Source: Minisyncoccota bacterium (GTDB lineage: Bacteria > Patescibacteriota > Minisyncoccia > Phycocordibacterales > UBA6899). Taken from it: DNA of 64,000 bases. The translations under genes were made by a program, and so were the position numbers. Location: contig DATEZQ010000012.1 of the NCBI GenBank assembly GCA_035583355.1, positions 24,683-88,682 of the forward strand, written 5' to 3'. Shown in pieces: positions 9,403 to 61,699 of the stretch (positions are counted from its first letter, which is position 1; each line of letters begins with the position of its first letter). The notes under the pieces were generated by a model. That model saw nothing but the letters and a program-made list of their open reading frames with translations. It did not search any database and was not told where the DNA came from.

Positions 9403-10230
9403 GTGCACAGTCACCCACTTATGAAATTCAGAAAAGCACTCGACAACCCACTCGTTGTATTCTCCTACATCTGGAGACATACCTACCAAAGACTTGTTGC
9501 CGACAAGGATGCAGACATTTATGGAAAAGTACGTTTCTTAAGCGAAACAGAAACTCTTGATGAGCTAATGAACCATAGTCGCTCTATGATTCGTGCAGGA
9601 GATGGGACGTTTGGATATCTCATGGGGGCGAGTATCTATTTCAATAATTGGCACTTTCGCTACAATCGTGCATTTGCGAGAATCCTCCTCTCGTCCCTTA
9701 AAGAAGCTGAGGCTGAGGGTATACTACTTTGCTTTCCCCATGAACAAATAACCCGAAAGAAAGAAGAATACCGATTGGCGAATATTCCCCACGAGTGGTC
9801 CATCTGGATTTCTGCGAAAATTCTTGCGAGGAAACTGCTTCGCGAAGGGTCTACATATGGAAACTCAATGTGCTTTCATCCGAAACACAATAAACACATA
9901 GACTTCCCCAGAATAAAGCACTTCCTTTCGACGCGACATGTCTATATCGTCACTTCTGGTGTTGAACGATTTACCGATATTAAGCTTGGACTAAGCACAA
10001 CCTTCATCGAGGCACCAGCTAATGACGCGTGGAGAGTCTATACACAGCTTGAAGATTCCGTACTTAGAGTAATCAGGACCAACGGCCACCAAAAGAACGA
10101 GGTGCTCATCATGATCTCAGCCGCAGAGGCAGCAAAAGTCATGATCCTTGATCTGCACAGGCAAGGTTATGTGTGCTGGGACACAGGGCAGTTCTTCGAG
10201 CTTGCATGTAAGCAAATAGCGGCACTCTAA
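9403..10230 (+). CDS. putative GT-D (DUF1792-like) glycosyltransferase / hypothetical
   Basis: GTG at 9403 or ATG at 9421. The pattern ETLDEL...RSMIRAGDGTF resembles the R-x-GDGE-F signature I recall for the DUF1792/GT-D family. The gene sits inside the glycan locus. Confidence 0.35.
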   Translation: MHSHPLMKFRKALDNPLVVFSYIWRHTYQRLVADKDADIYGKVRFLSETETLDELMNHSRSMIRAGDGTFGYLMGASIYFNNWHFRYNRAFARILLSSLKEAEAEGILLCFPHEQITRKKEEYRLANIPHEWSIWISAKILARKLLREGSTYGNSMCFHPKHNKHIDFPRIKHFLSTRHVYIVTSGVERFTDIKLGLSTTFIEAPANDAWRVYTQLEDSVLRVIRTNGHQKNEVLIMISAAEAAKVMILDLHRQGYVCWDTGQFFELACKQIAAL

Positions 10231-22789: not shown

Positions 22790-23470
22790 CTACATTTGAT
22801 TGATTGCGACCACGAATTCACCTCGGACTTTGTCCGGATGGGCAGCGTAATAGGCACGCACTTCCGCTGCGGTACCAATCTGTACTTCCTCAAACATTTT
22901 TGTGAGTTCTCGGCAGGCCGCAACTTTCCGATCTGCGGGAAGATACTTCTCGAGCGACTCAAGTGTCTTTTCGATACGGTGCGGAGATTCGTAAAATACT
23001 ATCGTGCGCTCTGTTTCTGCTATTTCTTTAAAGAGTGTCTCTCTCCCCTTCTTGTGCGGGAGAAAACCGAGAAAAAGAAACTGTGCTGAAGAGAATCCTG
23101 TCGAGACAAGCGCGGTGAGGAGTGCGGAAGCACCCGGAATTGCAATCACCTGCACGTCGGGCAGATGCTCACGTACAAGCTGGACAAGGAGTACCCCAGG
23201 ATCTGAAAGCGTCGGAGTGCCCGCATCAGATACAAGTGCGAGATCTTGACCGTCACGGAGAAGCTCAAGGATATCATCATGTTTCCCTGAACTACTCTGT
23301 GCGTGGTAGCTCATCGTCGGTACATGGATATCATATTTCGCGAGCAGATTCCTCGTCACGCGCGTGTCCTCACAAAGGATCTTATTGACCGATTTGAGGA
23401 CATTTAGCGCCCGCAGCGTGATATCTTCGAGGTTGCCAATTGGAGTAGAGACTATATATAGTGTCGCCAT
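22790..23470 (-). CDS. rsmI: 16S rRNA (cytidine1402-2'-O)-methyltransferase RsmI
   Basis: LYIVSTPIGNLEDITLRAL...ILCEDTRVT motif of the tetrapyrrole-methylase-fold RsmI. Confidence 0.85.
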   Translation of the reverse strand: MATLYIVSTPIGNLEDITLRALNVLKSVNKILCEDTRVTRNLLAKYDIHVPTMSYHAQSSSGKHDDILELLRDGQDLALVSDAGTPTLSDPGVLLVQLVREHLPDVQVIAIPGASALLTALVSTGFSSAQFLFLGFLPHKKGRETLFKEIAETERTIVFYESPHRIEKTLESLEKYLPADRKVAACRELTKMFEEVQIGTAAEVRAYYAAHPDKVRGEFVVAINQM

Positions 23471-23568
23471 AGAGGCATGTTAGCACAATATCCCAATAAT
23501 CAAAAACAAATATTGTGTGCTAAAAAACTCATATTTGTACACATTGTGCGCATGCCAAGACTCGAACT

Positions 23569-23692
23569 TTCTCGTCTTTACCCGTGAACGACTCAGCGCA
23601 GCTGAATCGTGAGTTGATAGCCGCACGGTGGCGCGACCTTGTCGGGCAAGCCAGCCCCGGTGCCCGAAGGGCCTGGCTTTTCAGTGATGCGC
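23569..23692 (-). ncRNA. structured repeat element, copy A (unclassified family)
   Basis: Shares the core GTCGCGCCACCG(Y)GCG(K)C(W)ATCAACTC plus downstream hairpins with copies B (23756-23850) and E (26871-27010). Hairpin stems differ by compensatory changes. Confidence 0.35.
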
Positions 23693-23755
23693 AAATAAAA
23701 AAGCCTTAAATAGATTCATTGATTTACAAGGTGCGCATGCCAAGACTCGAACTTG

Positions 23756-23850
23756 GGACCTCGTTTTACTGGATAGGGCTAGTGCGCAGCAATAGCCCGA
23801 GTTGATTGCCGCGCGGTGGCGCGACCTTGACCAGCAAGCGAGCCTGGTGT
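23756..23850 (-). ncRNA. structured repeat element, copy B
   Basis: Same conserved core. Hairpin GGGCTA-TTGCTGCGCAC-TAGCCC versus AAGCCA-CTGCTGCGCAT-TGGCTT in copy E, indicating covariation. Confidence 0.35.
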
Positions 23851-23883
23851 AAAGAAAAATCCCTATCAAATATTTATGTTCAA

Positions 23884-23959
23884 GGTGCGCATGCCAAGAC
23901 TCGAACTTGGGACCTCGTCATTATCAGTGACGCGCTCTAACCACCTGAGCTACACGCGC
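23884..23959 (-). tRNA. tRNA-Ile (anticodon GAT)
   Basis: The reverse complement folds as a cloverleaf. Acceptor GCGCGTG/CATGCGC, D-arm GCTC-AGGTGGTTA-GAGC, anticodon arm CGTCA-CTGATAA-TGACG, T-arm CCAAG-TTCGAGT-CTTGG, discriminator A. Confidence 0.8.
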
Positions 23960-24010
23960 ACTTTGAACACAAATATTTAATTGGGATCGATTTTTCTTTA
24001 CCTCGCTTTT

Positions 24011-24047
24011 CAGTGACGCGCTCTAACCACCTGAGCTACACGCGCAC
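24011..24047 (-). other. tRNA-Ile(GAT) 5'-half fragment (acceptor 5' strand to anticodon loop)
   Basis: 37 nt identical to positions 1-37 of the adjacent tRNA-Ile, followed by diverged sequence (CACTGAAAAGCGAGG). Confidence 0.6.
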
Positions 24048-24217
24048 TTTGTAAACCAATGAATATATTTAAGACCTAAATCACTCGCTTTCGCGTAGAG
24101 GCAATATACCAAAAATTCAGTGGAAACGCAATAGGTAAAGGCGCAATTCAGGATTACCCTTGACGCACTAATCTGGTCTGTTATGGTTAAAACAGAACTT
24201 CACCACAAGGAGTCCAT

Positions 24218-24553
24218 ATGGACAACCCCTCACTGCTCCTTTCAGGACTTCGCCTCAACAAAGCCCTCCAAGTTTGTGCTCCCGAAGAGCACAAAGCACT
24301 ACACCGAGCGATTGAAAAATTACTCGAAAGTGCAGGCCTCGAGCGCCCTCCCGGGAAAGAGTATGTCGTCACACTGACTGAAATACTCACCACGAGAGAA
24401 ATCACTGGGTCAGTTCGTGGAATGGTGACACTCGACCTTGCGCTCGACGGATTCTTCGATGCGCTCTTCAAGTTTACCCAGAACCGCTCGGACATCAGCG
24501 CGCTTTGCTGCGCTATCGGCCTCTACCGCTCGCGGATCAATCCGCGATCCTAA
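24218..24553 (+). CDS. hypothetical protein
   Basis: 111-aa ORF with AAGGAG RBS, followed by intrinsic terminator 24550-24583. Confidence 0.45.
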   Translation: MDNPSLLLSGLRLNKALQVCAPEEHKALHRAIEKLLESAGLERPPGKEYVVTLTEILTTREITGSVRGMVTLDLALDGFFDALFKFTQNRSDISALCCAIGLYRSRINPRS

Positions 24554-24583
24554 TCAAAAGCCCCATACGTGGGGCTTTTTCTC
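24550..24583. terminator. bidirectional rho-independent terminator
   Basis: aaagccccatacgtggggcttttt hairpin between convergent ORFs. Confidence 0.6.
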
Positions 24584-24585
24584 TA

Positions 24586-25044
24586 TCACGAACGAATGAT
24601 GAGTTCCGGGAATTGTGCTTGTACGAGCGCTGCAGTGCGCTTGCGATTTTCTTCTGCACCAAACTCACTACTCTTACCTTGCACCGCCCACTGCATATCT
24701 TTATCAACATAGGGATCGATCTTTTCAAAATAGCCTCCACCAATACAAGTCACCTTCTCACCCAATTCACCCCCAAGGATATTTACAATATCAGAGTGCA
24801 ATTCTGCCCTCCTGCGCGGAAGCGTAGCAAACAACTCTTCTCCTGTTGCTGTGCGTACAATAACATACTTCCCATCCACAGGCCCCTCATCCTCTTCTGC
24901 AAAATGATAAAAACTAAGCTCGGGCACTACCTCCTTCACTTCGTGCTTCACGTCCTCCTCTGCATTAAGCATCTGCCCTTCAGACACCTCTTCATTTCCT
25001 ATTCTTTCCATCCTGTAATTGTAGCATATACGGTTATTGTGCAT
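24586..25044 (-). CDS. hypothetical acidic protein
   Basis: 152-aa ORF (the alternative start MERIGNEE is 11 codons in); no recognised domain. Confidence 0.35.
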   Translation of the reverse strand: MHNNRICYNYRMERIGNEEVSEGQMLNAEEDVKHEVKEVVPELSFYHFAEEDEGPVDGKYVIVRTATGEELFATLPRRRAELHSDIVNILGGELGEKVTCIGGGYFEKIDPYVDKDMQWAVQGKSSEFGAEENRKRTAALVQAQFPELIIRS

Positions 25045-25137
25045 ACAAATTCTCGCTAGCCAAAGTACACACTTTGCTTGACATTTAATACAACTATGTC
25101 ATAATTTCCATAGACCACATTTCAACAAGGAGACACC

Positions 25138-25545
25138 ATGTCCACCAGTGATTCGCCCGCTCTCGTCAACACAAGGGATTTCCTCGCCAAGCAAGTTCGT
25201 GCACTGCTCATCTGCCTCGCCGTGCTCACAGCAATCCTCCTCCTCGGTCGACCCGACGGAAGGCATCTTTTCCTGCTGGCGCTCTGGGGATTCACCATGT
25301 TTTTTACCTTTAGCGCGACGGCCGGCTTCATCGCAAATCTCATCTCCATCACAGTCCTACTGACTGGCGGAGAAGTGCATCGTAAGACGATACATGCGTT
25401 CACTGCGATTCTGTCTGTCTTCATCGCAATCACTGCGAGCGTGCTGTTCACTACCCTCCTCGGGAAACCAGCTAACCCCACAATCGCCTTCTTCATGATC
25501 ATCTTCGCGGAGCTCGCTGCACACATCAGTGCATTTCAGGACTAG
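25138..25545 (+). CDS. hypothetical membrane protein
   Basis: AAGGAG RBS and three to four hydrophobic helices. Terminator caaaaacgcccacccgggcgtttttt follows at 25555-25585. Confidence 0.45.
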   Translation: MSTSDSPALVNTRDFLAKQVRALLICLAVLTAILLLGRPDGRHLFLLALWGFTMFFTFSATAGFIANLISITVLLTGGEVHRKTIHAFTAILSVFIAITASVLFTTLLGKPANPTIAFFMIIFAELAAHISAFQD

Positions 25546-25609
25546 CTCCCCCTCCCCAAAAACGCCCACCCGGGCGTTTTTTCTTTTACACTCTCTTCGA
25601 CATTATGAC

Positions 25610-26680
25610 CTAATCGCCCGTATCATACTTTTCGAGATACGTATTTAGTTGTCTGTTAACCATGATGAAGGTTGCGCGCTTTGGGAGCTCCTTGAGGAAG
25701 CTTGCGCCAAGATAGGTTGCAGTGCTACGCAACGCACCAAGGAGATCCTGAACGAAAATATGCAGATCTCCCTTGTGGGGAAGCAGTACATAGCGCCCCT
25801 CGCTCGCACGATGCGCATCTTTTTTCCCATAATGTTCGATCATTGCCTTATTTGAAGAGGAGCCGAAATACTCCTTATAGAGCTTTCCATTCTTCTCGAC
25901 TGTTTCTCCCCCACTCTGTTCAAATCCTGAAAAGAGTGAGCCGCACATATTGAAATCAGCACCACCACAAAATGCTTTTGCGATGTCGGAGATATATTGC
26001 TGTCCGCCATCGGCAATGATTCTCCCCACTCCTTGTGCATTTCGAATACCGTGCGCTGCATCCGCGCATTCAATGACCGCAGAGAGTTGCGGATAACCGA
26101 CACCGGTCATGCGCCTAGTAGTACATGCGGCACCTGAGCCAATACCTACCTTAACGATATCCGCACCCGAGAGAATGATCTCTTCAGCCATTTCGTTGGT
26201 CACGATATTCCCTGCGACGATGATATGTTCAGGAAACATTGCACGCACTGACTTGATCGCATCGATGAAACGCTGCAAATATCCATTGGGCACGTCGAGA
26301 CAAATGAATGAAAAATTCTTCATGAGACCAGCGGCATCCATATCGCGGAGTTTCTGCATGTCTTCGTCTCGTATACCTAGGCTGTACGCAACATAATCAG
26401 GGTTATTGAATTGAGCAAAGAATTCCTTGAAATCATCCACCGTATAATACTTATGGAACGTTGTAATGATCTTATATTCTGAGAGCACCCTCGCCATCTC
26501 AAATGTCCCCGAAGAAGCCATGTTTGCGGTCATGATCGGCATACCAGTCCACTCCTTTGGCGAATGATAGAACGTAAACGTTCGCTCCAGTACAACGTCC
26601 TTTCGTGATTCGAGTGTACTTCGCTTTGGCTTGAGGAGTACATCTGCGTAATCCAACTTCATGTCATTATCTATGCGCAT
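25610..26680 (-). CDS. guaC: GMP reductase
   Basis: Near-collinear similarity to GuaC (MRIxxDxKLxxxDVLxxPKRSTLxSRxDVxLERxFTF ... GADIVKVGIGSGAACTTRRMTGVGYPQLSAVIECADAAHG). Confidence 0.8.
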   Translation of the reverse strand: MRIDNDMKLDYADVLLKPKRSTLESRKDVVLERTFTFYHSPKEWTGMPIMTANMASSGTFEMARVLSEYKIITTFHKYYTVDDFKEFFAQFNNPDYVAYSLGIRDEDMQKLRDMDAAGLMKNFSFICLDVPNGYLQRFIDAIKSVRAMFPEHIIVAGNIVTNEMAEEIILSGADIVKVGIGSGAACTTRRMTGVGYPQLSAVIECADAAHGIRNAQGVGRIIADGGQQYISDIAKAFCGGADFNMCGSLFSGFEQSGGETVEKNGKLYKEYFGSSSNKAMIEHYGKKDAHRASEGRYVLLPHKGDLHIFVQDLLGALRSTATYLGASFLKELPKRATFIMVNRQLNTYLEKYDTGD

Positions 26681-26870
26681 ATATCGCCATTATAGCAGTT
26701 GCGGCAAAAGAAAACATGTAAAAACCTACCGCAATCATGAAATACAACATGTAAAGCCCCCATTCATCGAGTATTTAAATATTTGAAAATTTCAAAAATT
26801 TAATAAAAACCATCCAGTTCTTCCCTACTTTGAATCTAGGCGTATGCAAGTACTTGATCAATTCTTGATG

Positions 26871-27010
26871 TCTACCCGTGAACGACTCAGCGCATGAAAT
26901 TCTCTATCGGAAAAAGCCAATGCGCAGCAGTGGCTTGAGTTGATAGACGCGCGGTGGCGCGACTCCTACCGGTATCAGCGCCTGGTGCCGAGTTCTCGAG
27001 GCCGCTGATA
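26871..27010 (-). ncRNA. structured repeat element, copy E (in 16S downstream spacer)
   Basis: Same core and loop motif CTGCTGCGCA. It shares TGCGCTGAGTCGTTCACGGGTA with copy A. It is present in only one of two duplicated spacer units. Confidence 0.35.
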
Positions 27011-27384
27011 TTGCCTCATTTTACTTCAAATAGCGAGACGTTCCCAAAGGGAACGCCCCGAGCGTTGAGAATTCCCATAACCAATATTTAAACATTTGAA
27101 AATTTAAATATTTAACAAAAAGAAAAACACCCTTCCGGGTATTTCTTTACATTGACTACTGAGTGTTACGCAAGTTCTTAATCAATTCTTGATTCACTAT
27201 CAAGATAAGGTTGGAGAATATAAAATTCTCTATTGCCTCATTTTACCCCCTCGCTAACGTATTTGCGAGGAAATCCGACGTGCGACACCAGCACGTTAGG
27301 TCATGACTTAAATGGAATTTCATGATATCCATGTTTCTTGAAGAAACAATCGACGATCAGTGATCATATAAATATGAATCACGC

Positions 27385-28898
<1,514 letters not shown>

Positions 28899-29417
28899 TA
28901 ATTAAAAGTAAAATGAGACAAGAGAGAACTTTCTTTCTTGACCCAACTTTCAATGCTCTTGATTATTACTGTGTTATCGATTACTCGATTTCTCAAAACT
29001 GGAATTACAAATTGATTATGAAATTTGTTATTTTGGTCATTGCCTTTCGTATTACTCATACGGCAGGTTTGACCAGGATCTTGCGTAACACTCAGTTGTC
29101 AAAGTTCTTTACGTCTTTTCGGGGTTTTTGCTTTCGCTGAACTTCGATTGACGTAAGATGCAGTATATACGAATGCCAGGAATAGTCAAGCGATTTCTCC
29201 CCTTTCTTTTTACTGCCCTAGGACTTTATCACACTGAAATACCTATGTCAATACCTTTCTGTTAGTCACTCTATAGAGTACTTTCATAAGCATACTGACT
29301 GACCATTTGAACCACCCTACGCACCTGCATTTCCTCTCCATATATATGTATGTTTGCTGGTGCAAATTCCATGCAGCTGAGCATGAGAAAAACAAAAAGA
29401 ACGCTCATGCGTTCTTT

Positions 29418-37609: not shown

Positions 37610-37874
37610 AACCAAGACAAGCGGCCGCAAGGTCACTTGTCTTGGTTTTATATTTGGGTTTGTATCTACTATCTTCCAATTTTACTTATTCCAAAAATAT
37701 GCTAAAGTAACACCACAAAAGCAAGGAATAACCGACCTTATTCAACCGATTGCTATTTGGAGGAAACAATGCGTGGAATTGCTAAAGTGGTCGCGACGAC
37801 CACTCAGCCACTCTGCTATTTACCTTCCTCGTTAGCGGTACTTTCGCAAGAAAGCGCAGGCTAATAAAATATAC

Positions 37875-37961
37875 GGAGACGTGGCTGAGTGGTCGAAAGC
37901 ACCTCACTGCTAACGAGGCATCCCTTTACCGGGATCATGAGTTCGAATCTCATCGTCTCCG
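37875..37961 (+). tRNA. tRNA-Ser (anticodon GCT)
   Basis: Acceptor GGAGACG/CGTCTCC, anticodon loop CTGCTAA, long variable arm (ATCCC-TTTACC-GGGAT), T-arm ATGAG-TTCGAAT-CTCAT, discriminator G. Confidence 0.8.
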
Positions 37962-38020
37962 CAAAAAGAAAAACAACACGCAAGTGTTGTTTTTCTTTTT
38001 GCGGAGACGATGAGATTCGA
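37940..38020. repeat. 81-nt perfect palindrome spanning the tRNA-Ser 3' end, a terminator hairpin and an inverted copy of the tRNA 3' end
   Basis: gttcgaatctcatcgtctccgc + gcaaaaagaaaaacaacac-gcaa-gtgttgtttttctttttgc + gcggagacgatgagattcgaac. Confidence 0.7.
37959..38003. repeat. 43-bp direct repeat DR-left (second copy 39657-39704)
   Basis: gcaaaaagaaaaacaacacgc(a/g)agtgttgttttt(c/g)ttttt is about 40/43 identical between the two copies. Together they bracket a 1.65-kb two-gene module. Confidence 0.55.
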
Positions 38021-38023
38021 ACG

Positions 38024-38246: not shown

Positions 38247-38690
38247 CTATGAAATCACTTCTTCCACAATTCTTCCGTCTCTATAAACCCAGACGACGTG
38301 CACGCATCTTTTAAGTACTCCAACGAAGATGCCAATTTGGTAATTTAGATTTCTGTAACTCCTTATTTTATTGATATCCGCTACCCCCAATATTGAGCTC
38401 GGGGAGCATTTTTTTATTTCAAATATTGCAAGATTGCGTTCATTTGAACCTCTTCTGTGAATTATTATATCAGGTCGAACAACTGTTCCATCATCATTCA
38501 TTTTTGGTCCAGCTAAGCTTTTGCTATATTCACAGTCTATGTTAAATTCTTGCCCAAAATTACTTTCTAGATACAGAGCAATCCTATGGCTCAGGGTCGG
38601 CTCGTAGATTTTTACATTCATTAGTTCTACCCAGTCATTATCCATAAATAATCGAATTGCGGAACGAATTCCATTTTTTGTATCCTCCAT
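38247..38690 (-). CDS. hypothetical protein with PD-(D/E)xK-like motif
   Basis: 147 aa. RPDIIIHRRG...NLAIFEIKK fits hD-x(n)-E-x-K of restriction-endonuclease-fold nucleases. It lies in AT-rich DNA. Confidence 0.35.
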   Translation of the reverse strand: MEDTKNGIRSAIRLFMDNDWVELMNVKIYEPTLSHRIALYLESNFGQEFNIDCEYSKSLAGPKMNDDGTVVRPDIIIHRRGSNERNLAIFEIKKCSPSSILGVADINKIRSYRNLNYQIGIFVGVLKRCVHVVWVYRDGRIVEEVIS

Positions 38691-38694
38691 ATTA

Positions 38695-39471
38695 CTAGTT
38701 TTCTAATTTGACATATTTCTCTAGTTCAAGTGCAGCATCTCTAATCCCAGATATTTCATATATTAAATCACTGAGTCTATATATCATATCTGATGTTGCC
38801 ACAGACCACTGTTCGCACTGCTTACTCTGGAGGCTCCACAATTCTTTCTCTTTATCTAGGTTTTCTACGGCCTTCTCTTCCTTCTCCCTCAATAATATAT
38901 TTGCGTAATCCCAGTTAATAGTGTCTTTCAATCCATCTGAATGAAGGATCGAACTAAAGTTTTTTAGAATTTCTACCTCAGTAGCAGGTGCATTTATGTA
39001 GTAGCCAAAATCTCCCTTATTACCACCATGCTTATGATTGTTGCCAATATCTGTTATAGGTTTAAATTGAATATCTATTCTATCAATAAGTCCATTTAAC
39101 GACTCAACAACTTCCTCATCACGAGGGATATTCTTTTTAATAAATTTGATAAATCTTAATAATCTTTCTTTATATGCATACACATCAGCATAATATGAGT
39201 GAATATGGTATTGGAGAGCGTCTCCATCAGGTATTGCATCCAGTTCAACGTAAAAGTATTTAAAATATACAGTATACTTTTTTAATTTATTTTCGAACCA
39301 TTCGATTTCAGTTAATCTGTTTATACACTCATTTATATTAACTGTGTTAACGGTCAATAAAAGTGGTCTAATCTTCTGATTGATTTCTGAGATCATATAT
39401 TCTGTTCCCACATTCGTATCTCTAGATATTGAAAGTATACTTTTTATTCTTTGCAAGTGGCTTATTAACAT
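38695..39471 (-). CDS. hypothetical protein
   Basis: 258-aa ORF in AT-rich DNA. It lies 4 nt upstream of, and in a different frame from, the PD-(D/E)xK-like gene; no known domain. Confidence 0.35.
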   Translation of the reverse strand: MLISHLQRIKSILSISRDTNVGTEYMISEINQKIRPLLLTVNTVNINECINRLTEIEWFENKLKKYTVYFKYFYVELDAIPDGDALQYHIHSYYADVYAYKERLLRFIKFIKKNIPRDEEVVESLNGLIDRIDIQFKPITDIGNNHKHGGNKGDFGYYINAPATEVEILKNFSSILHSDGLKDTINWDYANILLREKEEKAVENLDKEKELWSLQSKQCEQWSVATSDMIYRLSDLIYEISGIRDAALELEKYVKLEN

Positions 39472-39656
39472 ACTTAAATTCTATCATGTACTTGCATAAT
39501 CTAAAGTCTAGAATTATTGCGCACCAATCTATTGAATTAGAAGTGCTACGGCCTTTTTGAAAGTGTGGCTAGAAATACCGACCCGCGAGCCTCATAAAAC
39601 GGATCAATATAATCCAAAATAACCTTACAGTACCTACGCCCACGATTACCTCACTC

Positions 39657-39704
39657 ATATGGCCTGCAAAAAGAAAAAACAACACGCGAGTGTTGTTTTT
39701 GTTT
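39657..39704. repeat. 43-bp direct repeat DR-right
   Basis: See DR-left. Confidence 0.55.
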
Positions 39705-39797
39705 TTCCACAGAATCCAATTAATACGAATACCCTCCTTGTTCAGAAACAGCAATTAAATACTTAAGGAATAAAATATTTCACGTACACAGAGAGTT

Positions 39798-41564
39798 CTA
39801 ATCAATTTCACTGTATACGACTTCCCTAAGGAATCTATCTTTTCGAGTAAACGTTGCCCTGGTATGCGCCTGTATGTCGAGCTTGATTTCTTTAGTCCTC
39901 TCTTCATTCTCAATTTTATCCCTATTTAACGTAAGAATATATTGAAAGTTTGACTTTTCCTCTTGCTCTGCGAGAAAATTAAGGCTCTGCACTAGCGTAT
40001 CTTGGTCCACATCAAAAATATTATCATGCACCAATATTGATGGATGTCGCTTCTTCGTATGATTATTAATCATCAATGCAATGTCATAAATAAATACCTT
40101 TTCCCTATCAACGCTATGACTCCCATCTTCAGGAATACGAAAATCGAATTGAACAATTTTTTTACCCTTACCAGACTTTACCGCGGATATATCAAAAGTA
40201 ATTTTGGCATTGCCCATTATATACGAGTGAATATCAGCAAGTGTCCTGTTGAAATCATCGATAACGCTGTTGTAGGACATTATTTCATCTTCAAGGGCAG
40301 ACACGTAGCCATCTCTCTTGCGTTTTAAGACGTTTATCTCATACTCAACACTCTCATGTTCACGCAAATTTGCTTGAGTAATTGATAAATTTTCTTTCCT
40401 CCTAGACATTAATGCGTAACTTTCTTTTAATGAATCAAGGGAACCATTGAAATTTATCATCACAAGCAATGACGACCTTCTCGCGTCTAAAACACTCAAA
40501 CGACTCTGGATTTTTTGCACCTCACTTCTAATCTCGTGAGCACGACCGTCTATAAGGATCTTTTGATAATTCTCAATTTTTTGCTTAAACGCGACAACAT
40601 CACTAATTGACCTTGCAACCAAATCACCAAGCCCCTTTGCAAATTTGTTATACACAAATTGAACTTCGCTAGTATCAATAATTTCCAACTTAGGTATAGA
40701 TTCAATTCTCTGAAGTTCAAACCTTAATGCCGCCCTCTTAATTCGCAGCTGTTCACATTCTAAATCAATATTCCCAAGCTCCTCTTGGTTATTTTGGAAA
40801 ATTGGTTCCATCTTATATTCATCAAGAAGTGAGTTTATTTTTCCGAGCTCAAGCTCAGAATCATTAACTTCGGCCTTGATGTCAGAAATATTTTGATTCC
40901 CAGAACCAGTCAACCTTTTTGTAATATGATTTTTAGTTTTCTGCTTTTCATCAATTTCCTTAAATACCTTTTTTATTCTCCTTATATAGCTAGGATTAAT
41001 TCCGAAAAGGTATAAATGTGGCTTGGTGAGATCTTGGTCAGGGATCTTTTCCCTCAAATCGTAGCAATTTAAAATACTCTTAAATTCTGAATCCTCAGAC
41101 CGTATTAATGGGCCCATAAACTCTCTGAAACTCGGCCTTTCTATATCATCTCCTGAATTGCTGAAAAGCAAATTTCCTAGGTAGGTAGTCGCATCTGCCA
41201 TATTCTTAAACTTTGTAATCTGGCCCTCACATACAATTTCCGGCTTATTCGGCTCTTTTATGGTTCTCCTCAATGTTAACTCCTTCCCGCCGATTGAAAC
41301 GTCAAGACAAATTATTGCGTTATGCGAAAATTTATCAAGCGGGATTTTCATAACCCTGCTATCACTCGAGTCCTTTAAAAGGCAAAAGTTGATAAATTCG
41401 ACTGAGAGCGACTTTCCGACTCCATTTGTTTTTTTATCCTTCCTGGACGTAGACCTTGATTCTGAATCCGGGACCTTCTCTCCAAGAATAATATTTATAC
41501 CATCATAAAAACTGATGGGCTTGAAAGTCTCTGGTTGGCTATATAGCTTATGTAGACGAATCAT
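39798..41564 (-). CDS. SMC/ABC-type ATPase (ABC-three-component-like / DUF2326-like) with coiled-coil insert
   Basis: N-terminal P-loop KKTNGVGKSLSVEF (xxNGxGKS), then about 300 aa of coiled-coil-like sequence. The C-terminal region has a Walker-B-like SILVHDNIFDVD with D-loop. The start overlaps the upstream stop. Confidence 0.5.
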   Translation of the reverse strand: MIRLHKLYSQPETFKPISFYDGINIILGEKVPDSESRSTSRKDKKTNGVGKSLSVEFINFCLLKDSSDSRVMKIPLDKFSHNAIICLDVSIGGKELTLRRTIKEPNKPEIVCEGQITKFKNMADATTYLGNLLFSNSGDDIERPSFREFMGPLIRSEDSEFKSILNCYDLREKIPDQDLTKPHLYLFGINPSYIRRIKKVFKEIDEKQKTKNHITKRLTGSGNQNISDIKAEVNDSELELGKINSLLDEYKMEPIFQNNQEELGNIDLECEQLRIKRAALRFELQRIESIPKLEIIDTSEVQFVYNKFAKGLGDLVARSISDVVAFKQKIENYQKILIDGRAHEIRSEVQKIQSRLSVLDARRSSLLVMINFNGSLDSLKESYALMSRRKENLSITQANLREHESVEYEINVLKRKRDGYVSALEDEIMSYNSVIDDFNRTLADIHSYIMGNAKITFDISAVKSGKGKKIVQFDFRIPEDGSHSVDREKVFIYDIALMINNHTKKRHPSILVHDNIFDVDQDTLVQSLNFLAEQEEKSNFQYILTLNRDKIENEERTKEIKLDIQAHTRATFTRKDRFLREVVYSEID

Positions 41565-41782
41565 ATCTTGAAAATATAAGGCTCCGAAAAATCAACTACT
41601 CCAGATTGATATAGAAATATCAAAGTAAAAATCAATTGGCGATGATTAACTAAACCAACTTGATCTTTCAAACTCAAAACAAGCTCATCGAGGGTGATTT
41701 TTTTTCTTTTTTGAATTCTCTTCAAAATAAGAAACCCTAGATAAGGGGGCGAAACTCCTATTTTTTCATCTTTTGTAATCAT
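41561..41782 (-). CDS. small hypothetical protein (73 aa), middle gene of three-gene cassette
   Basis: Both ends overlap its neighbours by 4 nt (ATGA), indicating translational coupling. Confidence 0.4.
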   Translation of the reverse strand: MITKDEKIGVSPPYLGFLILKRIQKRKKITLDELVLSLKDQVGLVNHRQLIFTLIFLYQSGVVDFSEPYIFKI

Positions 41783-42738
41783 GGAGCGTTCGGGAAAACA
41801 TTACACTTCACCAATTCGTCGAGTAAGTAAAACCTGATTGCCTGATAATCATACTTTTTCTTTGAATTTTTGGAAATTTCATTCTCGAAATATTCAGTGA
41901 GATTAACAAGTGCAACCTCCGCATCCCCATCAGCCTGGGTAAGAAAATCATCACTTCTAATTCGTAGAAAATTCCTCATATACTCGACCTTGGCAGTATC
42001 AAGGCCTAAGGCTCTATCGACTTCAACTCTTGCTGCGCAGTAAATAGGAAGAAGAGAGACTAGTTGCGATTTTAGAAATTCAGATTTCGAAGAGAATCGC
42101 TGCTCGATTTTCCCCTGAGGGTCTGGCTCCTCGCGATACTGTCCATTCGTTAATTCCTTTTTTTCACTAATGTACAGAACCAAATCTGCGATAGTCTCAA
42201 CCTCAGATGCAATTTTGTTTTCAGTTTTAGAATGAGAGCCACCCGAAAATTCCTCCTCAAAAATTTGTAAAATCCTCATGATCTCCCCAGGGGATCCTTT
42301 TGCCCGAACTAAACCTAAGATATCTGTCAAATCCATAATATCCCCTGAATCAAACTTTATTCCTTTAGGGGCAGTAATTGATTTAATTTTACGCTTTTTA
42401 TCTGCAATAATAATAAATTTCAATGTATCATACGAGGAAGAAAGCCCATTGGCGTCAAAAGCTTTTATTGTTTTATCAATTTTTGTTTTACTATTCTCGG
42501 ATGTAACTTGAACGGAAACGCGTTTCTCTTCATCCCCCAGGTCAATAGAGGGGAAGTTCATTCTTAGAATATTTTTATTTTCGAGATTTAAAGCGAGAAT
42601 TTCATTAAGCAGGCGACAGAAAAAATCTTCTAGGTGACTATTTATATCCGTTAGGCCATTTCCATTACTTATCTTAGTTTGCACTTTTATGCGAGCAAGA
42701 TATGCTGTCACCTCATTAATTAAATCTTGCCTATCCAT
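41779..42738 (-). CDS. SMEK-like domain protein (first gene of cassette)
   Basis: The N-terminal region EVTAYLARIKV...LTDINSHLEDFFCRLLNEILALNL...MNFPSIDLGDEEKRVSVQVTS resembles, from memory, N-termini annotated as SMEK domain in ABC-three-component-type conflict systems. Confidence 0.35.
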   Translation of the reverse strand: MDRQDLINEVTAYLARIKVQTKISNGNGLTDINSHLEDFFCRLLNEILALNLENKNILRMNFPSIDLGDEEKRVSVQVTSENSKTKIDKTIKAFDANGLSSSYDTLKFIIIADKKRKIKSITAPKGIKFDSGDIMDLTDILGLVRAKGSPGEIMRILQIFEEEFSGGSHSKTENKIASEVETIADLVLYISEKKELTNGQYREEPDPQGKIEQRFSSKSEFLKSQLVSLLPIYCAARVEVDRALGLDTAKVEYMRNFLRIRSDDFLTQADGDAEVALVNLTEYFENEISKNSKKKYDYQAIRFYLLDELVKCNVFPNAP

Positions 42739-58533: not shown

Positions 58534-59964
58534 CTACTTCATCGCGAGCAACTGGCTCGCCTTTTCGGACAGCGGTGAGCGTTCCGACTTCTCGAGCGTG
58601 ATGTGCGCGAAACGAGTGGTGCCGCGGAACCTGCTGATCAGGAACGAGAGCCCGCTCGTGTGTTCGGAAACGTAGGCGGTCTCGTCAATCTGCGCGAGGT
58701 TGCCTTCGATAACGAACTTCGTACCCTTTCCTGCACGAGTAATGAGCAGTTCGATATCCTGGGGAGTTCGGTTCTGCGCTTCGCCAACAATAACATAGCG
58801 GCGATGCCTCGTCCGTCCGCGCTCATGCGCGATTGCTTCGGAGGTAATGTAGGCCTCCTCGGTAGCCTTACGAGTAACGTTACGCACGCCATCATCAGGG
58901 TCGAAGAGCACGTCGAGACTGTCCGCGTACGGGGCCATCCACGGCTTCAGCTTATCCCCCACGTCTCCGGGGAGGAATCCGAGCTCCTTGCGCCCGACGA
59001 CATCCTGGGAAAGCATGATATTGATTTCGTCGTAACGCTCAGGGCGATCCCCTCCTTCAGCAGTCTGTTCGAGACCTGCGGCGAGAGAGAGGAGTGTCTT
59101 GCCTGAACCAGGCAATCCGTTGAGCACCACGATGTCGATTTCCGGATTCATGAGTGCCCACATTGCCAAACCCTGCCTCAGATTCTTTTCCTTGAGGCCG
59201 AAGACGCGATGGCCGTTTGAATACGACCAGACCGTGACGAGCTCGACGCCGACCTCAGTAGAGGAGAGCACGAATGCTCTCTTGAAAGGGGCGCCGGGAT
59301 CGGCCGAGATGGCGAAGTTGCCGGTCAGGAAACGCGGATCAGGTGGCAGGAAATAGTGCTCGATCGAGTTGATGTTCTCGGTCCTGAAGTCAAGACCTTG
59401 GAAATACCCAATCGGGAGCTCTTCGACACCAGAACCGAGCAGCACGCTGTCATCGAAAACTGCGCCCGTCGAATATTCTTCGGCGACGAATCCGAGCAGT
59501 CCGCACTTGATGCGGAAGTTGGTGTCCATGGATACCACGATGATTTTGTGGTCCTGGAAACGGGCTTCTTTCTGAAGCCCATCGACGATGCTCAGAATGA
59601 GGTTATCCTTCTTGCGCTCGTCGAAACATTCGAGTAGGCTGACGCGCACGCGCACGTCTTGGAAGAAGATCTTGCCGGTGGCATCGCCCGCACGTTCGTG
59701 TTCGGTGATCGAGATTCCTGCGGTAGCGGGAAGTTTTTCCCTCACGGCGATCGCGCGGAACTGGTCCAGCGAATTTGCGGACATGCGCGCATGGCGCTGA
59801 GCCATCGTGCCGCCCTTCTTGTTGTTGTCGAGTTCTTCGATAACCGGGAGGCAGATGAAAATATCATTGTCCTGGAAATGGAATAGAGACAGCGGATTGT
59901 GCATGAGCACATTCGTATCGAGAACGAACAACTTCTTGCGATCAGCGGCCGGAGTCTTGGGCAT
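58534..59964 (-). CDS. PhoH-like ATPase with N-terminal PIN domain (YlaK/PhoL-like)
   Basis: PIN motif LFVLDTNVLMHNP...EELD; P-loop LNGLPGSGKTLLSLAAGL. Confidence 0.8.
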   Translation of the reverse strand: MPKTPAADRKKLFVLDTNVLMHNPLSLFHFQDNDIFICLPVIEELDNNKKGGTMAQRHARMSANSLDQFRAIAVREKLPATAGISITEHERAGDATGKIFFQDVRVRVSLLECFDERKKDNLILSIVDGLQKEARFQDHKIIVVSMDTNFRIKCGLLGFVAEEYSTGAVFDDSVLLGSGVEELPIGYFQGLDFRTENINSIEHYFLPPDPRFLTGNFAISADPGAPFKRAFVLSSTEVGVELVTVWSYSNGHRVFGLKEKNLRQGLAMWALMNPEIDIVVLNGLPGSGKTLLSLAAGLEQTAEGGDRPERYDEINIMLSQDVVGRKELGFLPGDVGDKLKPWMAPYADSLDVLFDPDDGVRNVTRKATEEAYITSEAIAHERGRTRHRRYVIVGEAQNRTPQDIELLITRAGKGTKFVIEGNLAQIDETAYVSEHTSGLSFLISRFRGTTRFAHITLEKSERSPLSEKASQLLAMK

Positions 59965-60118
59965 GGTCGGAATCCTCTAGAAAGCGCTGGTCACTACTGT
60001 GGCTCAGCGGGGTTGTTGGGAAAGTACGATTTACTGCATTAGTTCTACCACCATCACCGAACCTGGCAAGGGATAATTTGTATAGCTAAAAAGACACTGT
60101 GGTATACTTCTTTATACC

Positions 60119-60589
60119 ATGTCTTCCATCCACAACTTTGAAGAGCTCGCTATGTGGCAAAAAGCACGCCTACTTACCAAGGGTGTATATATCGCACTAC
60201 GAGAATGCCGCGATGGTGGATACAAAGACCAAATACAGAGAGCGAGTGTTTCGGTCATGAGCAACATTGCGGAGGGATTCGAGCGGGGAACGAAAAATGA
60301 ATTTATTAATTATCTCTATATCGCAAAAGGGTCTGCGGGTGAAGTACGTGCGCAGCTCTATGCAGGGCTTGATATCGGATATTTAAATATTGAAACATTT
60401 GAATATTTAAAGGATCTCGCGACGCAATGCTCAAAGCTCATACATTCGTTCACGGAAAAAGTAAAAGCGAATGATAGAAGCGGCATTCAATACAAACGCC
60501 CAGAATACATAGACCCGATGGAATCCATTACGAAGGAGCATGATCCGGCGTTGTGGGAAAAGCTGTATGGGAAGAAAGGGTCTACATAA
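60119..60589 (+). CDS. four-helix-bundle protein (23S rRNA intervening-sequence protein family)
   Basis: Signature WQKARLLTKGVY...QIQRASVSVMSNIAEGFERGTKNEFINYLYIAKGSAGEVRAQL. Confidence 0.65.
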   Translation: MSSIHNFEELAMWQKARLLTKGVYIALRECRDGGYKDQIQRASVSVMSNIAEGFERGTKNEFINYLYIAKGSAGEVRAQLYAGLDIGYLNIETFEYLKDLATQCSKLIHSFTEKVKANDRSGIQYKRPEYIDPMESITKEHDPALWEKLYGKKGST

Positions 60590-60627
60590 AACCAAGGAAA
60601 TGCTTTCGCATTTCCTTGGTTATTTTG

Positions 60628-60676
60628 TCCATCCAGCACGACTCGAACGTGCGACCGGCCGTGTATAACATCGGCC
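60628..60676 (-). other. partial tRNA 3' copy (anticodon arm through acceptor 3' strand), diverged from adjacent tRNA-Ile(TAT)
   Basis: TTATACACGGCC-GGTC-GCACG-TTCGAGT-CGTGC-TGGATGG parallels the 3' two-thirds of the neighbouring tRNA. It lacks a D-arm and a matching 5' acceptor strand. Confidence 0.45.
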
Positions 60677-60682
60677 ATTTTG

Positions 60683-60755
60683 TCCGCCCTGCAGGACTCG
60701 AACCTGCGACCAGTCGTGTATAAGACGACCGCTCTACCAACTGAGCTAAGGGCGG
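60683..60755 (-). tRNA. tRNA-Ile (anticodon TAT; AUA-decoding)
   Basis: The reverse complement folds as a clean 73-nt cloverleaf. Acceptor CCGCCCT/AGGGCGG (C1:G72), D-arm GCTC-AGTTGGTA-GAGC, anticodon arm GTCGT-CTTATAC-ACGAC, T-arm GCAGG-TTCGAGT-CCTGC, discriminator A. Confidence 0.6.
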
Positions 60756-61012
60756 ATATATTTGAGAAAGGGCGGACAATGACGCCAGGCGATGTTGCTG
60801 GTCACAGTCTCGCCACCGCGAGGCAAATCAACTCACGGTAATGCATACATTACCGTTTTCCAGTAAGACGCTGCACCTTATTTGCGAAAGAATACCTCGA
60901 TTTCTCTTGGATGCTTTGTAGTTTAGCAGAATACGCAAACCTCGCAACCTGAATCCCCTCCCAATCCACACCCATACATCCTCCATAGTATTTTATGTTA
61001 TACTAATGGCAT

Positions 61013-61699
61013 ATGGAAAATGACATTCAAACCCCACGCGACGAGGTGACCGAAACCTCATCAGTCGCACAGAGTCTCACTAAGGAGCTCGCTATTACGC
61101 GCATCACAAAGGAGTTCGCAGCACAGATTGCACGCGAGGTAACCGCAGCGGAGATTATTCTCTTTGCAGCAGCATTCGCTACATTGCCACTCATGGATTT
61201 CATTGCAAAGGCATTTGGCTCACTCGGTAGCGCAACACAAGTTCTGTATGCAATCGTTCCAGCAGCAGCATTTGCACTTGGCTACTGGTTCTCAAAGGAT
61301 AAAGTAACCGCGGTTGGAGTATTCCTCCATTCAATCGCTGCGATTGCACTCCTCATGGCCGCAATCGCACTCCTTCCTATGGTTCCAGGAATGCAGCAGG
61401 TACTCACTGGTCCAGGCACCATCGCACTTGGCATGCCAATCTTGACCTTTATCTTCCTTTTCGCAGCAGCACGTGTACCAAACACAGGCGCAAGCTACAT
61501 CTTTGCTTCTATCGCAGCAATGATGATCTTCTTCCTTTCTGCAGCACAGCTCCTTGGCATTCCATGCAACAATGCACTCCTCAGCAACTCAGATAAGGCA
61601 GCACAGATCTGTTCTGCAACTCCTTATGTCCAGAACACACTCATCCCTGTAGCGATCTTCATCCTTGGCTACTTCACGTTCCAAGCAAAGAAGGCATAA
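61013..61699 (+). CDS. hypothetical membrane protein
   Basis: 228 aa, about five TM helices, followed by a terminator at 61700-61738. Confidence 0.4.
   Translation: MENDIQTPRDEVTETSSVAQSLTKELAITRITKEFAAQIAREVTAAEIILFAAAFATLPLMDFIAKAFGSLGSATQVLYAIVPAAAFALGYWFSKDKVTAVGVFLHSIAAIALLMAAIALLPMVPGMQQVLTGPGTIALGMPILTFIFLFAAARVPNTGASYIFASIAAMMIFFLSAAQLLGIPCNNALLSNSDKAAQICSATPYVQNTLIPVAIFILGYFTFQAKKA

Follow-up and report, generated by a model that had tools for sequence, protein, structure and literature searches.

Probable replacement of a tRNA-Ile(UAU) gene by insertion into its own anticodon loop in a Patescibacteria genome

What is the diverged partial tRNA copy that lies beside a complete tRNA-Ile gene in this genome, and how did it come to be there? 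The stretch of DNA that we analysed (64 kb, hereafter the window) contains three tRNAs, one of which the original prediction had described as a 73-nt tRNA-Ile with a genomic UAU anticodon and a C1:G72 first pair. ARAGORN and the Rfam tRNA model agree on this gene, the former reporting tRNA-Ile(tat) at 60682–60755 and the latter (RF00005) matching 60683–60755, both on the minus strand, with 71.5 bits (E = 2.3e-15; gathering score 29). The resident sequence (CCGCCCTTAGCTCAGTTGGTAGAGCGGTCGTCTTATACACGACTGGTCGCAGGTTCGAGTCCTGCAGGGCGGA, 73 nt) has the acceptor stem CCGCCCT/AGGGCGG, from which the C1:G72 pair is read directly, followed by discriminator A73 with no encoded CCA. Its 7-nt anticodon loop, CTTATAC, presents the UAU anticodon together with U33 and A37, every stem is Watson–Crick paired, and the minimum free energy is −33.2 kcal/mol (z = −3.1). 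The identity elements of isoleucine tRNAs in Escherichia coli are A73, C4:G69, U12:A23, and C29:G41; by inspection, the resident tRNA has all four, and its position 38 is C rather than A. Judged by these features, the gene at 60683–60755 is predicted to be functional and to encode a genuine AUA-reading tRNA-Ile. Across 61 long ORFs of the window, the frequency of AUA is 11.0 per 1000 codons, or 15.6% of Ile codons, and the SGGxDS PP-loop motif, searched as a check for tilS, is absent from the ORFs of the 64-kb window.

A genomic UAU tRNA-Ile is rare in classical bacteria (PMC3575796), and the original prediction had called it rare in bacteria at large. The statement holds for the classical groups but not for the host's phylum, the Patescibacteria (CPR, Paceibacterota), where the gene is common and has conserved synteny with ftsH and recG. 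An FtsH identical to that of the host is listed in NCBI under Candidatus Paceibacterota. A scan of one genome per species returned at least 120 UAU tRNA-Ile matches, and most of the matches listed carry Patescibacteria group names. RecG and/or ftsH lie within the tRNA-Ile(UAU) locus in 46 cases, and in 18 loci ftsH ends 27–187 nt upstream of the tRNA on the same strand; orthologues in the order ftsH, tRNA-Ile(UAU), recG occupy matching genomic positions across CPR loci and in three relatives of the host (L365–L367). The genomic UAU tRNA-Ile beside ftsH/recG is common and anciently syntenic in the phylum, for which it is an ordinary, essential gene. UAU-based decoding of AUA, regarded as exceptional in bacteria, is the rule in a very large radiation of bacteria, at a conserved ftsH-linked position; we found no description of UAU tRNA-Ile usage in CPR in the literature. 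In Mycoplasma mobile and a few other bacteria without tilS, a tRNA-Ile(UAU) likewise decodes AUA (Taniguchi et al. 2013, PMC3575796). Both systems read AUA with a UAU anticodon encoded in the genome and not with a lysidine-modified CAU tRNA, but the CPR gene is phylum-wide and ftsH/recG-syntenic instead of a sporadic, late change within a clade, and the tRNA-Ile(UAU) of the window additionally differs in carrying C1:G72.

The adjacent 3′-partial copy that had been predicted is real. Downstream of the resident tRNA, the minus strand reads CAAAAT, GGCCGATG, TTATACACGGCCGGTCGCACGTTCGAGTCGTGCTGGATGGAC, and AAAAT, and the block at 60627–60668 (minus strand) is homologous to nt 33–74 of the tRNA. 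It matches the resident gene at 35 of 42 positions (BLAST E = 2e-4 within the window), with the 52:62 pair altered on both sides from G:C to C:G and TGGATGG as its acceptor 3′ strand. Against the functional tRNA-Ile(UAU) of relative L367, the same block is identical to nt 33–74 at all 42 positions. Because the relic is 100% identical to a working gene of relatives while the nearby intergenic DNA has diverged, either the event was very recent or the relic is under selection. Working tRNA and relic are separated by a 14-nt spacer at 60669–60682 (minus strand; CAAAATGGCCGATG, read from the sequence), which we read as the putative trailer of an inserted tRNA segment; a CAAAAT trailer also follows a C1-type tRNA-Ile(UAU) in locus L258. 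GGCCG in the spacer can pair with CGGCC in the relic, so that the native fragment might begin at nt 27 instead of nt 33, which would shift the breakpoint.

Relatives of the host were reached through homologues of FtsH and of the neighbouring four-helix-bundle protein; a PhoH2-based search of species genomes for related loci gave nothing usable. By tblastn, FtsH is 87% identical to that of the window in L365, 76% in L366, and 73% in L367, and each of these three has a tRNA-Ile(UAU) between the same flanking genes with the acceptor CCATCCA/TGGATGG. This native allele is retained by L365–L368 and by L030, and the resident gene differs from it in acceptor-stem, anticodon-stem, and T-stem pairs. 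C1:G72 is a lineage trait, because native and replacement alleles of the host clade both have it; a sample of 113 other tRNA-Ile(UAU) genes contained the pair 27 times. The most informative relative, L368, has a four-helix-bundle protein 90% identical to that of the window and the same PhoH2 neighbour and orientation. There, the gene stop is followed by the terminator and then by the native tRNA, which continues unbroken past the anticodon loop and into the D arm. Collinearity of the window with L368 extends to ...GTGTATAA, beyond which the window has the spacer and the replacement tRNA instead. The L368 contig stops inside the tRNA at about nt 19, and the comparison covers the tRNA from there to its 3′ end. 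The locus comparison proposed along with the original prediction shows a native tRNA in relatives, unbroken in L368. Two Logan assemblies, independent of each other and built from separate sequencing runs, show the same arrangement as the window. No donor with the exact replacement allele was found; the closest sequences were L017 (66 of 73 positions) and a tRNA on a viral contig identical at nt 8–48.

Given the observed identity of the relic with the relatives' tRNA, the uninterrupted allele, the breakpoint, and the recurrence of the pattern in other CPR loci, we consider it probable that an insertion carrying a complete replacement tRNA split the native tRNA-Ile(UAU) and that the adjacent copy is the displaced native 3′ half. 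The native gene, with its acceptor CCATCCA/TGGATGG, would have been broken in the anticodon loop at the TTA of CTTATAC, a break that can be placed between nt 32/33 and nt 35/36. The insert of ∼195 bp would comprise the complete tRNA-Ile(UAU) with acceptor CCGCCCT/AGGGCGG, a short leader and trailer, and one copy of a structured repeat, E. The inserted tRNA would then have taken over decoding, the native 5′ half would mostly have been deleted afterwards, and the native 3′ half would survive as a trailer ahead of the terminator. To judge from its stems, the resident tRNA is a replacement (xenologous) allele, foreign in both halves. A probable remnant of the native 5′ half lies at 60864–60877 (minus strand), where GGTGCAGCGTCTTA matches native GGTAGAGCAGCCGTCTTA of L365–L368 by eye with two small deletions and zero substitutions; as a 14-nt match with two gaps it is the weakest piece of the reconstruction and could be spurious. 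The flank of this E copy had also been considered as a match to tRNA-Ile(GAU) exons, a candidate that we dropped because the reverse complement of the 5′ half of the native tRNA-Ile(UAU) fits better. Read in this way, the relic would provide a dated before-and-after case of a foreign allele supplanting an essential single-copy tRNA gene by insertion into the anticodon loop of that gene.

The copy of E at this site (E#4, 60764–60863, plus strand) has three helices and a 5′ hairpin and sits antisense to the tRNA, within the split native gene. Covariance model R1 scores 85.6 bits at 60782–60872, 12 of 24 pairs covary over five copies, and the plus-strand fold of E#4 has z = −3.15. There are four copies in the window, one strong match in L367, and two weak matches in L366. 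E sits inside tRNA-Ile anticodon loops in the tRNA-Ile(GAU) region of the window, where its copies lie in the nested gene and in a downstream fragment, in tRNA-Ile(UAU) of the window, and in L367. Four copies are flanked on both sides by TAA/TTA, with one-base deviations in two of them. In 59900–61100 and 23300–27450, Rfam searched at permissive thresholds (E ≤ 10 / E ≤ 5) detected neither group I introns nor ribozymes nor any further family, and 200 other CPR or metagenome loci had no match to the E covariance model. A search of viral contigs with the E core motif returned a single match within a GC-rich coding region, which we judged to be chance. E is a clade-specific structured repeat. An IS200/IS605-like reading was considered; no terminal inverted repeats were seen by eye, and no transposase was identified. 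We infer that the insert is a small non-autonomous mobile segment, tolerated in an essential single-copy tRNA gene since it brought a working copy. The case for mobility comes from the distribution only, because no transposase, integrase, or homing endonuclease lies adjacent and E lacks terminal inverted repeats.

The original prediction had likened the partial copy to an att-site footprint. In that scenario, a phage or island integrated into the tRNA 3′ half, which was regenerated from attP, and the displaced half is an attR left after later loss of the element. Of the features expected of an att pair, a directly repeated 3′ part of the tRNA is present (60627–60668, nt 33–74), and the fragment, which extends from the anticodon loop past the 3′ end to take in a few trailer bases, is the block that anticodon-loop-targeting tyrosine integrases duplicate according to the accounts taken up in PMC9897764 (Williams 2002, Reiter 1989); comparable orphan 3′ halves occur in non-CPR genomes as well (L032, L067, L071, L081). 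The two copies, however, are only 14 nt apart, with no element or recombinase between or beside them. The neighbouring genes encode PhoH2, the four-helix-bundle protein, an uncharacterised 228-aa protein, and FtsH, with no integrase or phage family in Pfam. Integrase capture predicts a native 5′ strand (CCATCCA) joined to an element-derived 3′ strand, whereas both acceptor strands are foreign (CCGCCCT/AGGGCGG), and in many related loci the 5′ half is duplicated too, which integrase recombination does not produce. A classical footprint is thus distinctly unlikely; what stands of the likeness is that the copy marks a DNA insertion into a tRNA gene, not as attL or attR but as the in-situ relic of the native gene. 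Still less credible, and in our judgement very improbable, is a local tandem duplication of the resident tRNA's 3′ half followed by neutral decay: CAAAAT follows both copies, and true duplications that include the trailer occur elsewhere (L248), but the fragment equals the relatives' functional tRNA at 42 of 42 positions and the resident at only 35 of 42, the differences are compensated stem changes and not random decay, and in L368 the fragment sequence belongs to an intact gene at the same position.

The retained 3′ half could instead be a selected functional RNA, serving as a trailer processing or stability signal, a small RNA resembling a tRNA half, or one piece of a split tRNA. We regard this as unlikely, yet it would account for the contrast between a nearly vanished 5′ half and a relic that is 100% identical to the working gene of relatives, and an intact T-arm in the 3′ copy beside a decayed 5′ copy recurs in L005, L258, L301, and L355; lying between the tRNA and the terminator, the relic should also be co-transcribed. 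Against it, the partner 5′ half (CCATCCA...) is absent from the window, 3′ copies elsewhere vary from identical to plainly decayed, as relics of differing age would, and the fragment folded on its own is unremarkable (z = −1.0). The 5′ remnant, moreover, differs by deletions only, which fits a recent event. As for an assembly artefact from mixed strains with different tRNA alleles, the data are metagenomic and the L368 contig does break within the tRNA, but the junctions are shared by two independent assemblies of different sequencing runs, and the spacer and E copy are unique sequence rather than strain variants; this explanation is hardly plausible at all.

The insertion reading does not stand on a single locus. 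Self-fragments occur near 41 of the 1,785 tRNAs in all the loci that we fetched, and at least 15 of the 41 are nested: the 5′ copy stops at nt 35–38, and the 3′ copy begins at nt 33–37. In an unbiased species sample, fragments accompany 7 of 113 tRNA-Ile(UAU) genes versus 1 of 182 other tRNAs. Acceptor stems differ between the inner and outer copies in several nested loci, each internally complementary; one locus (L256) has two successive 3′ halves, and the window's own tRNA-Ile(GAU) shows the same nested architecture as its tRNA-Ile(UAU). The pattern is seen in other CPR lineages and in other tRNAs too, and our literature searches turned up no account of nested tRNA genes. Leader–trailer complementarity, taken as an alignment score (an energy-based version was swamped by GC-rich loci), has a median of 10 for fragment-flanked tRNAs vs 4.75 for the others (Mann–Whitney p = 8e-7). 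The inserted tRNA of the window scores 6 and is without the helix present in most other nested loci. The "I5" hairpin, which precedes several tRNA-Ile(UAU) genes of Paceibacteria, was recovered at its own seed loci only. We tentatively suggest that Patescibacteria may harbour small non-autonomous tRNA-bearing segments that insert into cognate tRNA anticodon loops and are usually leader–trailer paired, repeated rounds of which would give "Russian-doll" genes and horizontal allele replacement among lineages. As each insert brings a working copy, it could hit an essential single-copy gene. If the inserts are mobile, they would represent a previously undescribed route for tRNA genes between genomes, a source of annotation errors (tRNA halves and pseudo-tRNAs), and a way to study how bacteria with reduced genomes cope with insertions in indispensable genes.

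Insertions into tRNA genes are known from several other settings. Integrative elements that target tRNAs regenerate their target (Reiter 1989, Williams 2002, in PMC9897764). As they are portrayed there, these elements share with the present locus the entry of foreign DNA into tRNA genes, in many cases within the anticodon loop, the preservation of function by sequence from the element, and a displaced fragment that remains. In contrast to the elements of that account, the insert in the window is ∼0.2 kb, integrase-free, and carries a whole tRNA gene instead of the 3′ part; the working tRNA is non-chimeric, and related loci duplicate the 5′ half and can nest more than once. Group I introns have been described in Patescibacteria tRNA genes, at position 35/36 (Nakagawa et al. 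2026, PMC13011429), with the same phylum, the same preference for the anticodon loop, and flanking tRNA halves that escape standard annotation. Unlike these introns, the inserts lack an Rfam group I match and are too short (about 80–200 nt). E, moreover, is antisense to tRNA-Ile(UAU), an orientation impossible for an RNA intron that speaks against the group I reading, and with an intact tRNA inside the insert splicing is not needed. Intron-containing, split, and permuted tRNA genes of archaea have interruptions in or near the anticodon loop. The nested genes resemble them in this position and in the helices between sequences flanking the tRNA body, but the host of the window is bacterial. Outer halves have decayed in several loci, which identifies them as relics and not expressed exons. 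A bulge-helix-bulge at the junctions, assessed by hand, was dropped, as the register lacks two 3-nt bulges around a 4-bp helix.

On the other side of the relic, convergent with the tRNA, lies the gene for the 156-aa four-helix-bundle protein (60119–60589, plus strand). The ORF is a clear member of the "23S rRNA intervening sequence protein" family, matching PF05635 with E = 2.6e-30 (105.2 bits; cut-off 33.8) and TIGR02436 with E = 1.3e-27 (96.2 bits; cut-off 24). The original prediction had tied this gene to 23S rRNA intervening sequences; the family assignment stands, but the gene is not in such a sequence. It lies between PhoH2 and the tRNA, and no LSU rRNA match was found anywhere in the window. 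At least 7,909 homologues have E ≤ 1e-10 in the database; the best 120 of these are 58–90% identical, and every source named among them is a CPR group. In CPR, the form of 152–156 aa with a C-terminal extension is very abundant. Among close relatives the gene is distributed patchily, gene by gene: tblastn gave no match at the syntenic site in L365–L367, and L368 shares the gene along with its PhoH2 neighbour. Since L368 has it beside an unbroken native tRNA, the gene arrived before the tRNA event, a further departure from the 23S setting. Proteins of this family are related to the Avd proteins of diversity-generating retroelements, and no reverse transcriptase match was found in the six neighbouring proteins scanned. 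Members sometimes occur inside RNA-gene arrays (L270). Between the gene and the relic, a terminator scan located a 14-bp hairpin with T-runs on both strands (60590–60621), probably a bidirectional terminator shared by the four-helix-bundle gene and the tRNA transcript; the minus-strand fold of 60580–60682 has z = −5.6.

We called tRNA genes with ARAGORN and the Rfam tRNA model. ARAGORN found three in the whole window, among them a minus-strand tRNA-Ile(tat) at 60682-60755 (71.5 bits with the Rfam model), so that the predicted tRNA-Ile with a UAU anticodon and a C1:G72 pair was borne out. All of its cloverleaf pairs are Watson-Crick; the acceptor stem is CCGCCCT/AGGGCGG, the anticodon loop is CTTATAC, and CCA is not encoded. 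By inspection, it carries C4:G69, U12:A23, C29:G41, and A73, the isoleucine identity elements known from work in E. coli. AUA is used at 11.0 per 1000 codons.

A protein identical to the window’s FtsH is listed in NCBI under Candidatus Paceibacterota. Scanning a UAU tRNA-Ile pattern against one genome per species gave at least 120 matches, and those listed are mostly from Patescibacteria (Kaiser-, Nomura-, Taylor-, Saccharibacteria, and others), with some from Planctomycetota, Dormibacterota, and small archaea. Matches on viral contigs were likewise numerous, the count being a lower bound. The rarity ascribed to this anticodon holds against classical bacteria, where AUA is handled by tilS and a CAU tRNA (PMC3575796), but not within Patescibacteria, which dominate among the matches listed. 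In a sample of 113 predicted tRNA-Ile(UAU) genes of other organisms, 27 start with C1. The end of ftsH lies 27-187 nt upstream on the same strand in 18 loci, and ftsH and/or recG fall inside the fetched stretch in 46. In Patescibacteria (CPR), the tRNA sits immediately 3′ of ftsH, often with recG convergent (loci L013, L014, L025, L047, L053, L065, L073, L091, L111, L113, and others). From taxon spread and synteny together, tRNA-Ile(UAU) is an ancient, vertically retained piece of the phylum’s translation apparatus, and the working tRNA belongs to a known kind and occupies the usual position for the phylum. The literature searched yielded no description of its use in CPR. In many other bacteria, tilS adjoins ftsH, and the AUA-decoding function may therefore have kept its genomic address.

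Downstream of the working tRNA, the minus strand reads CAAAAT, then GGCCGATG, and then a 42-nt block (60627-60668) homologous to tRNA nt 33-74, with AAAAT again on its far side. This is the partial 3′ copy that had been predicted beside the tRNA. Next comes a strong 14-bp hairpin (60590-60621), which the convergent 156-aa gene shares. Relatives found through FtsH homologues (L365, 88% identical by protein search and 87% by tblastn; L366, 76%; L367, 73%) all have tRNA-Ile(UAU) between a membrane-protein gene and PhoH2/recG. Their acceptor, shared with the more distant L030, is CCATCCA/TGGATGG and differs from that of the window tRNA. The partial copy is identical to nt 33-74 of the L367 tRNA at 42 of 42 positions, versus only 35 of 42 for the window’s own tRNA; where copy and working tRNA differ, the stem changes are compensated, affecting 52:62, three positions of the acceptor, and the 3′ strand of the anticodon stem.

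L368, the locus of the best homologue of the neighboring four-helix-bundle protein (90% identical), is nearer than L365-L367. It has PhoH2, the four-helix-bundle gene, a terminator, and the native tRNA, oriented as in the window; this tRNA is unbroken from nt 74 across the anticodon loop and into the D arm, at which point the contig stops. Window and L368 are collinear until ...GTGTATAA, after which the window enters a 14-nt spacer and the CCGCCCT-type tRNA. Taken with the identity between the partial copy and the relatives’ tRNA, this break in collinearity establishes that the anticodon loop is where the native gene was interrupted and that the tRNA now in use represents a replacement allele; the partial copy is its relic. 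An 8-nt gap past the working tRNA leads to a 100-nt structured repeat on the opposite strand (60764-60863), a copy of the element E described below. Beyond it lies TAAGACGCTGCACC. Read as its reverse complement, this stretch agrees with native nt 18-35 apart from two small deletions and is, less certainly, a remnant of the native 5′ half. The whole insert is ∼195 bp, with TTA at both junctions, and the split-gene structure recurs in two independent assemblies. The terminator beside the relic has diverged past recognition between window and L368 while the relic still matches the relatives’ working gene throughout, which points to an event in the very recent past or to selection acting on the relic. 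In L366 (10620-10740) and L367 (4742-4800), the intact tRNA-Ile(UAU) is immediately preceded by a unit made of the native 5′ half (nt 1-35) plus 25-29 nt, present once or twice in tandem, and is followed by truncated 3′ fragments (TATACACGGCCGGTCGCA...).

In an unbiased species sample, self-fragments were found at 7 of 113 tRNA-Ile(UAU) genes and 1 of 182 other tRNAs among the matches listed. A metagenome scan for a tRNA T-arm, a short gap, and TATAC...T-arm found many more; over all fetched loci, fragments accompany 41 of 1,785 tRNAs, of which at least 15 are nested, that is, complete between flanking 5′ and 3′ tRNA halves. Nesting was also met for tRNA-Val, tRNA-Met, and tRNA-Ser. The 5′ copies at nested loci end at nt 35-38 and the 3′ copies begin at nt 33-37. 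Inner and outer acceptor stems are different yet each internally complementary in L046/L256, L123, L079, L352, L027, and the window tRNA-Ile(UAU), so that two functional alleles came together there; in L305, L343, L097, and the window tRNA-Ile(GAU), the copies are identical or nearly so. L256 has two 3′ halves in succession, each with an anticodon-stem strand that pairs with a different 5′ copy. At fragment-bearing loci, the leader and trailer of the inner tRNA usually pair, lengthening the acceptor stem (median pairing score 10 versus 4.75 for other tRNAs, p = 8e-7). A conserved hairpin of ∼65 nt with GA-rich symmetric internal loops, “I5” (L005 2331-2411, L258, L301, and L355), has a decayed outer 5′ half (...CTTA) on one side and the inner tRNA-Ile(UAU) with its leader on the other, and the closing helix of the hairpin covaries (ACAAGT/ACTTGT versus CCTGGT/ACCAGG). 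The outer 5′ halves in L064 (tRNA-Val UAC) and L097 (tRNA-Ile UAU) hold a second, hairpin-forming insertion of ∼80-90 nt in the D loop, with TTAG duplicated in L097. On a viral contig (L213, IMGVR_UViG_3300020577_001758) that also codes for an RNA ligase, amidoligases, and a RimK-like protein, a tRNA-Ile(UAU) at 9828-9903 with acceptor GCATCCT equals the working tRNA at nt 8-48, a possible hint that phages carry such alleles.

E is a structured repeat of ∼90-110 nt confined to the window’s clade. Its conserved three-helix fold comprises a closing helix, the hairpin GTCGCGCcaccGCGCGGC, single-stranded AATCAACTC, and a variable hairpin, with covariation at 12 of 24 pairs. Besides the copy in the split gene (plus strand), copies lie on the minus strand at 23760-23850, 23572-23662, and 26898-26988, the last downstream of the 16S gene; a further copy is in L367 at 4555-4647. 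Where flanks are recognizable, E lies in tRNA-Ile anticodon loops at TTA/TAA with the trinucleotide on both sides, and both orientations with respect to the tRNA occur; it behaves like a DNA-level insertion. We found no inverted terminal repeats in E and no matching Rfam family.

All three window tRNAs have pieces of themselves nearby. The nested tRNA-Ile(GAU) (23884-23959, minus strand, as are its copies; whole region 23546-24045) has a 100% identical outer copy of nt 1-36 50 nt upstream (24010-24045) and an outer copy of nt 42-76 119 nt downstream (23730-23764), the latter preceded by E. A further 3′ fragment is located at 23546-23569, and the E copy at 23572-23662, which comes without a tRNA, is inside an additional tRNA-Ile(GAU) fragment. 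The leader (23960-24009) is complementary to the start of the trailer. At the end of the plus-strand tRNA-Ser(GCU), its last 22 nt and a terminator arm together make up a perfect palindrome of 40 bp (37941-38022), in which those 22 nt recur inverted at 38001-38022. An inverted copy of its nt 7-21 lies upstream (37797-37811), and a hairpin run and an unannotated ORF block (38247-42738) follow the palindrome.

What is established here is a native gene split, a complete foreign allele inside the split, and a geometry that recurs. The original prediction saw in the partial copy an att-like footprint, as a classical integrase would leave at a tRNA. Two defining predictions of that model fail: neither an element nor a recombinase is present at the locus, and the working tRNA is not chimeric; the 5′-half copies at other loci would also go unexplained. 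Local tandem duplication is contradicted by the identity of the relic with the relatives’ alleles. The block is better read as what is left of a native tRNA gene whose replacement took place inside it. We favor insertion into the native gene of a small segment bearing its own tRNA, which would make the break in an essential single-copy gene tolerable, much as integrative elements regenerate their tRNA targets. In the literature searched, we found no description of nested tRNA genes or of a repeat that seeks anticodon loops; both seem undescribed.

The gene convergent with the tRNA encodes, as predicted, a four-helix-bundle protein (156 aa, clear PF05635/TIGR02436). It belongs to a 152-156-aa form for which a threshold of E ≤ 1e-10 gives at least 7,909 homologues; identity ranges from 58 to 90% among the best 120, and every source name given is a CPR group. 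Their contexts are unrelated (after secA, among hypothetical genes, or inside a 31-tRNA array), and the gene is missing at the syntenic site in L365-L367, consistent with repeated gain and loss. It was already there before the tRNA event, being beside the native tRNA in L368. A functional tie to the tRNA was not seen beyond the common terminator, and six neighboring proteins scanned gave no reverse transcriptase match. In the array (L270 7700-8180), the PF05635-type gene lies between tRNA-Asn and tRNA-Gly.

The family’s usual 23S intervening-sequence context does not apply, as the gene is not within a 23S gene here. No 23S gene comes after the 16S gene (27389-28905, minus strand), and LSU rRNA had no match within the 64-kb window. 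A 356-aa ORF (25610-26680) occupies part of the interval between 16S and tRNA-Ile(GAU) (23960-27388). At its 3′ end, the 16S gene reads GGAUCAAUUCCAAU in the alignment against the consensus GGAUCACCUCCUUU, with a possibly unreliable last-base alignment, and the anti-Shine-Dalgarno sequence may be altered.
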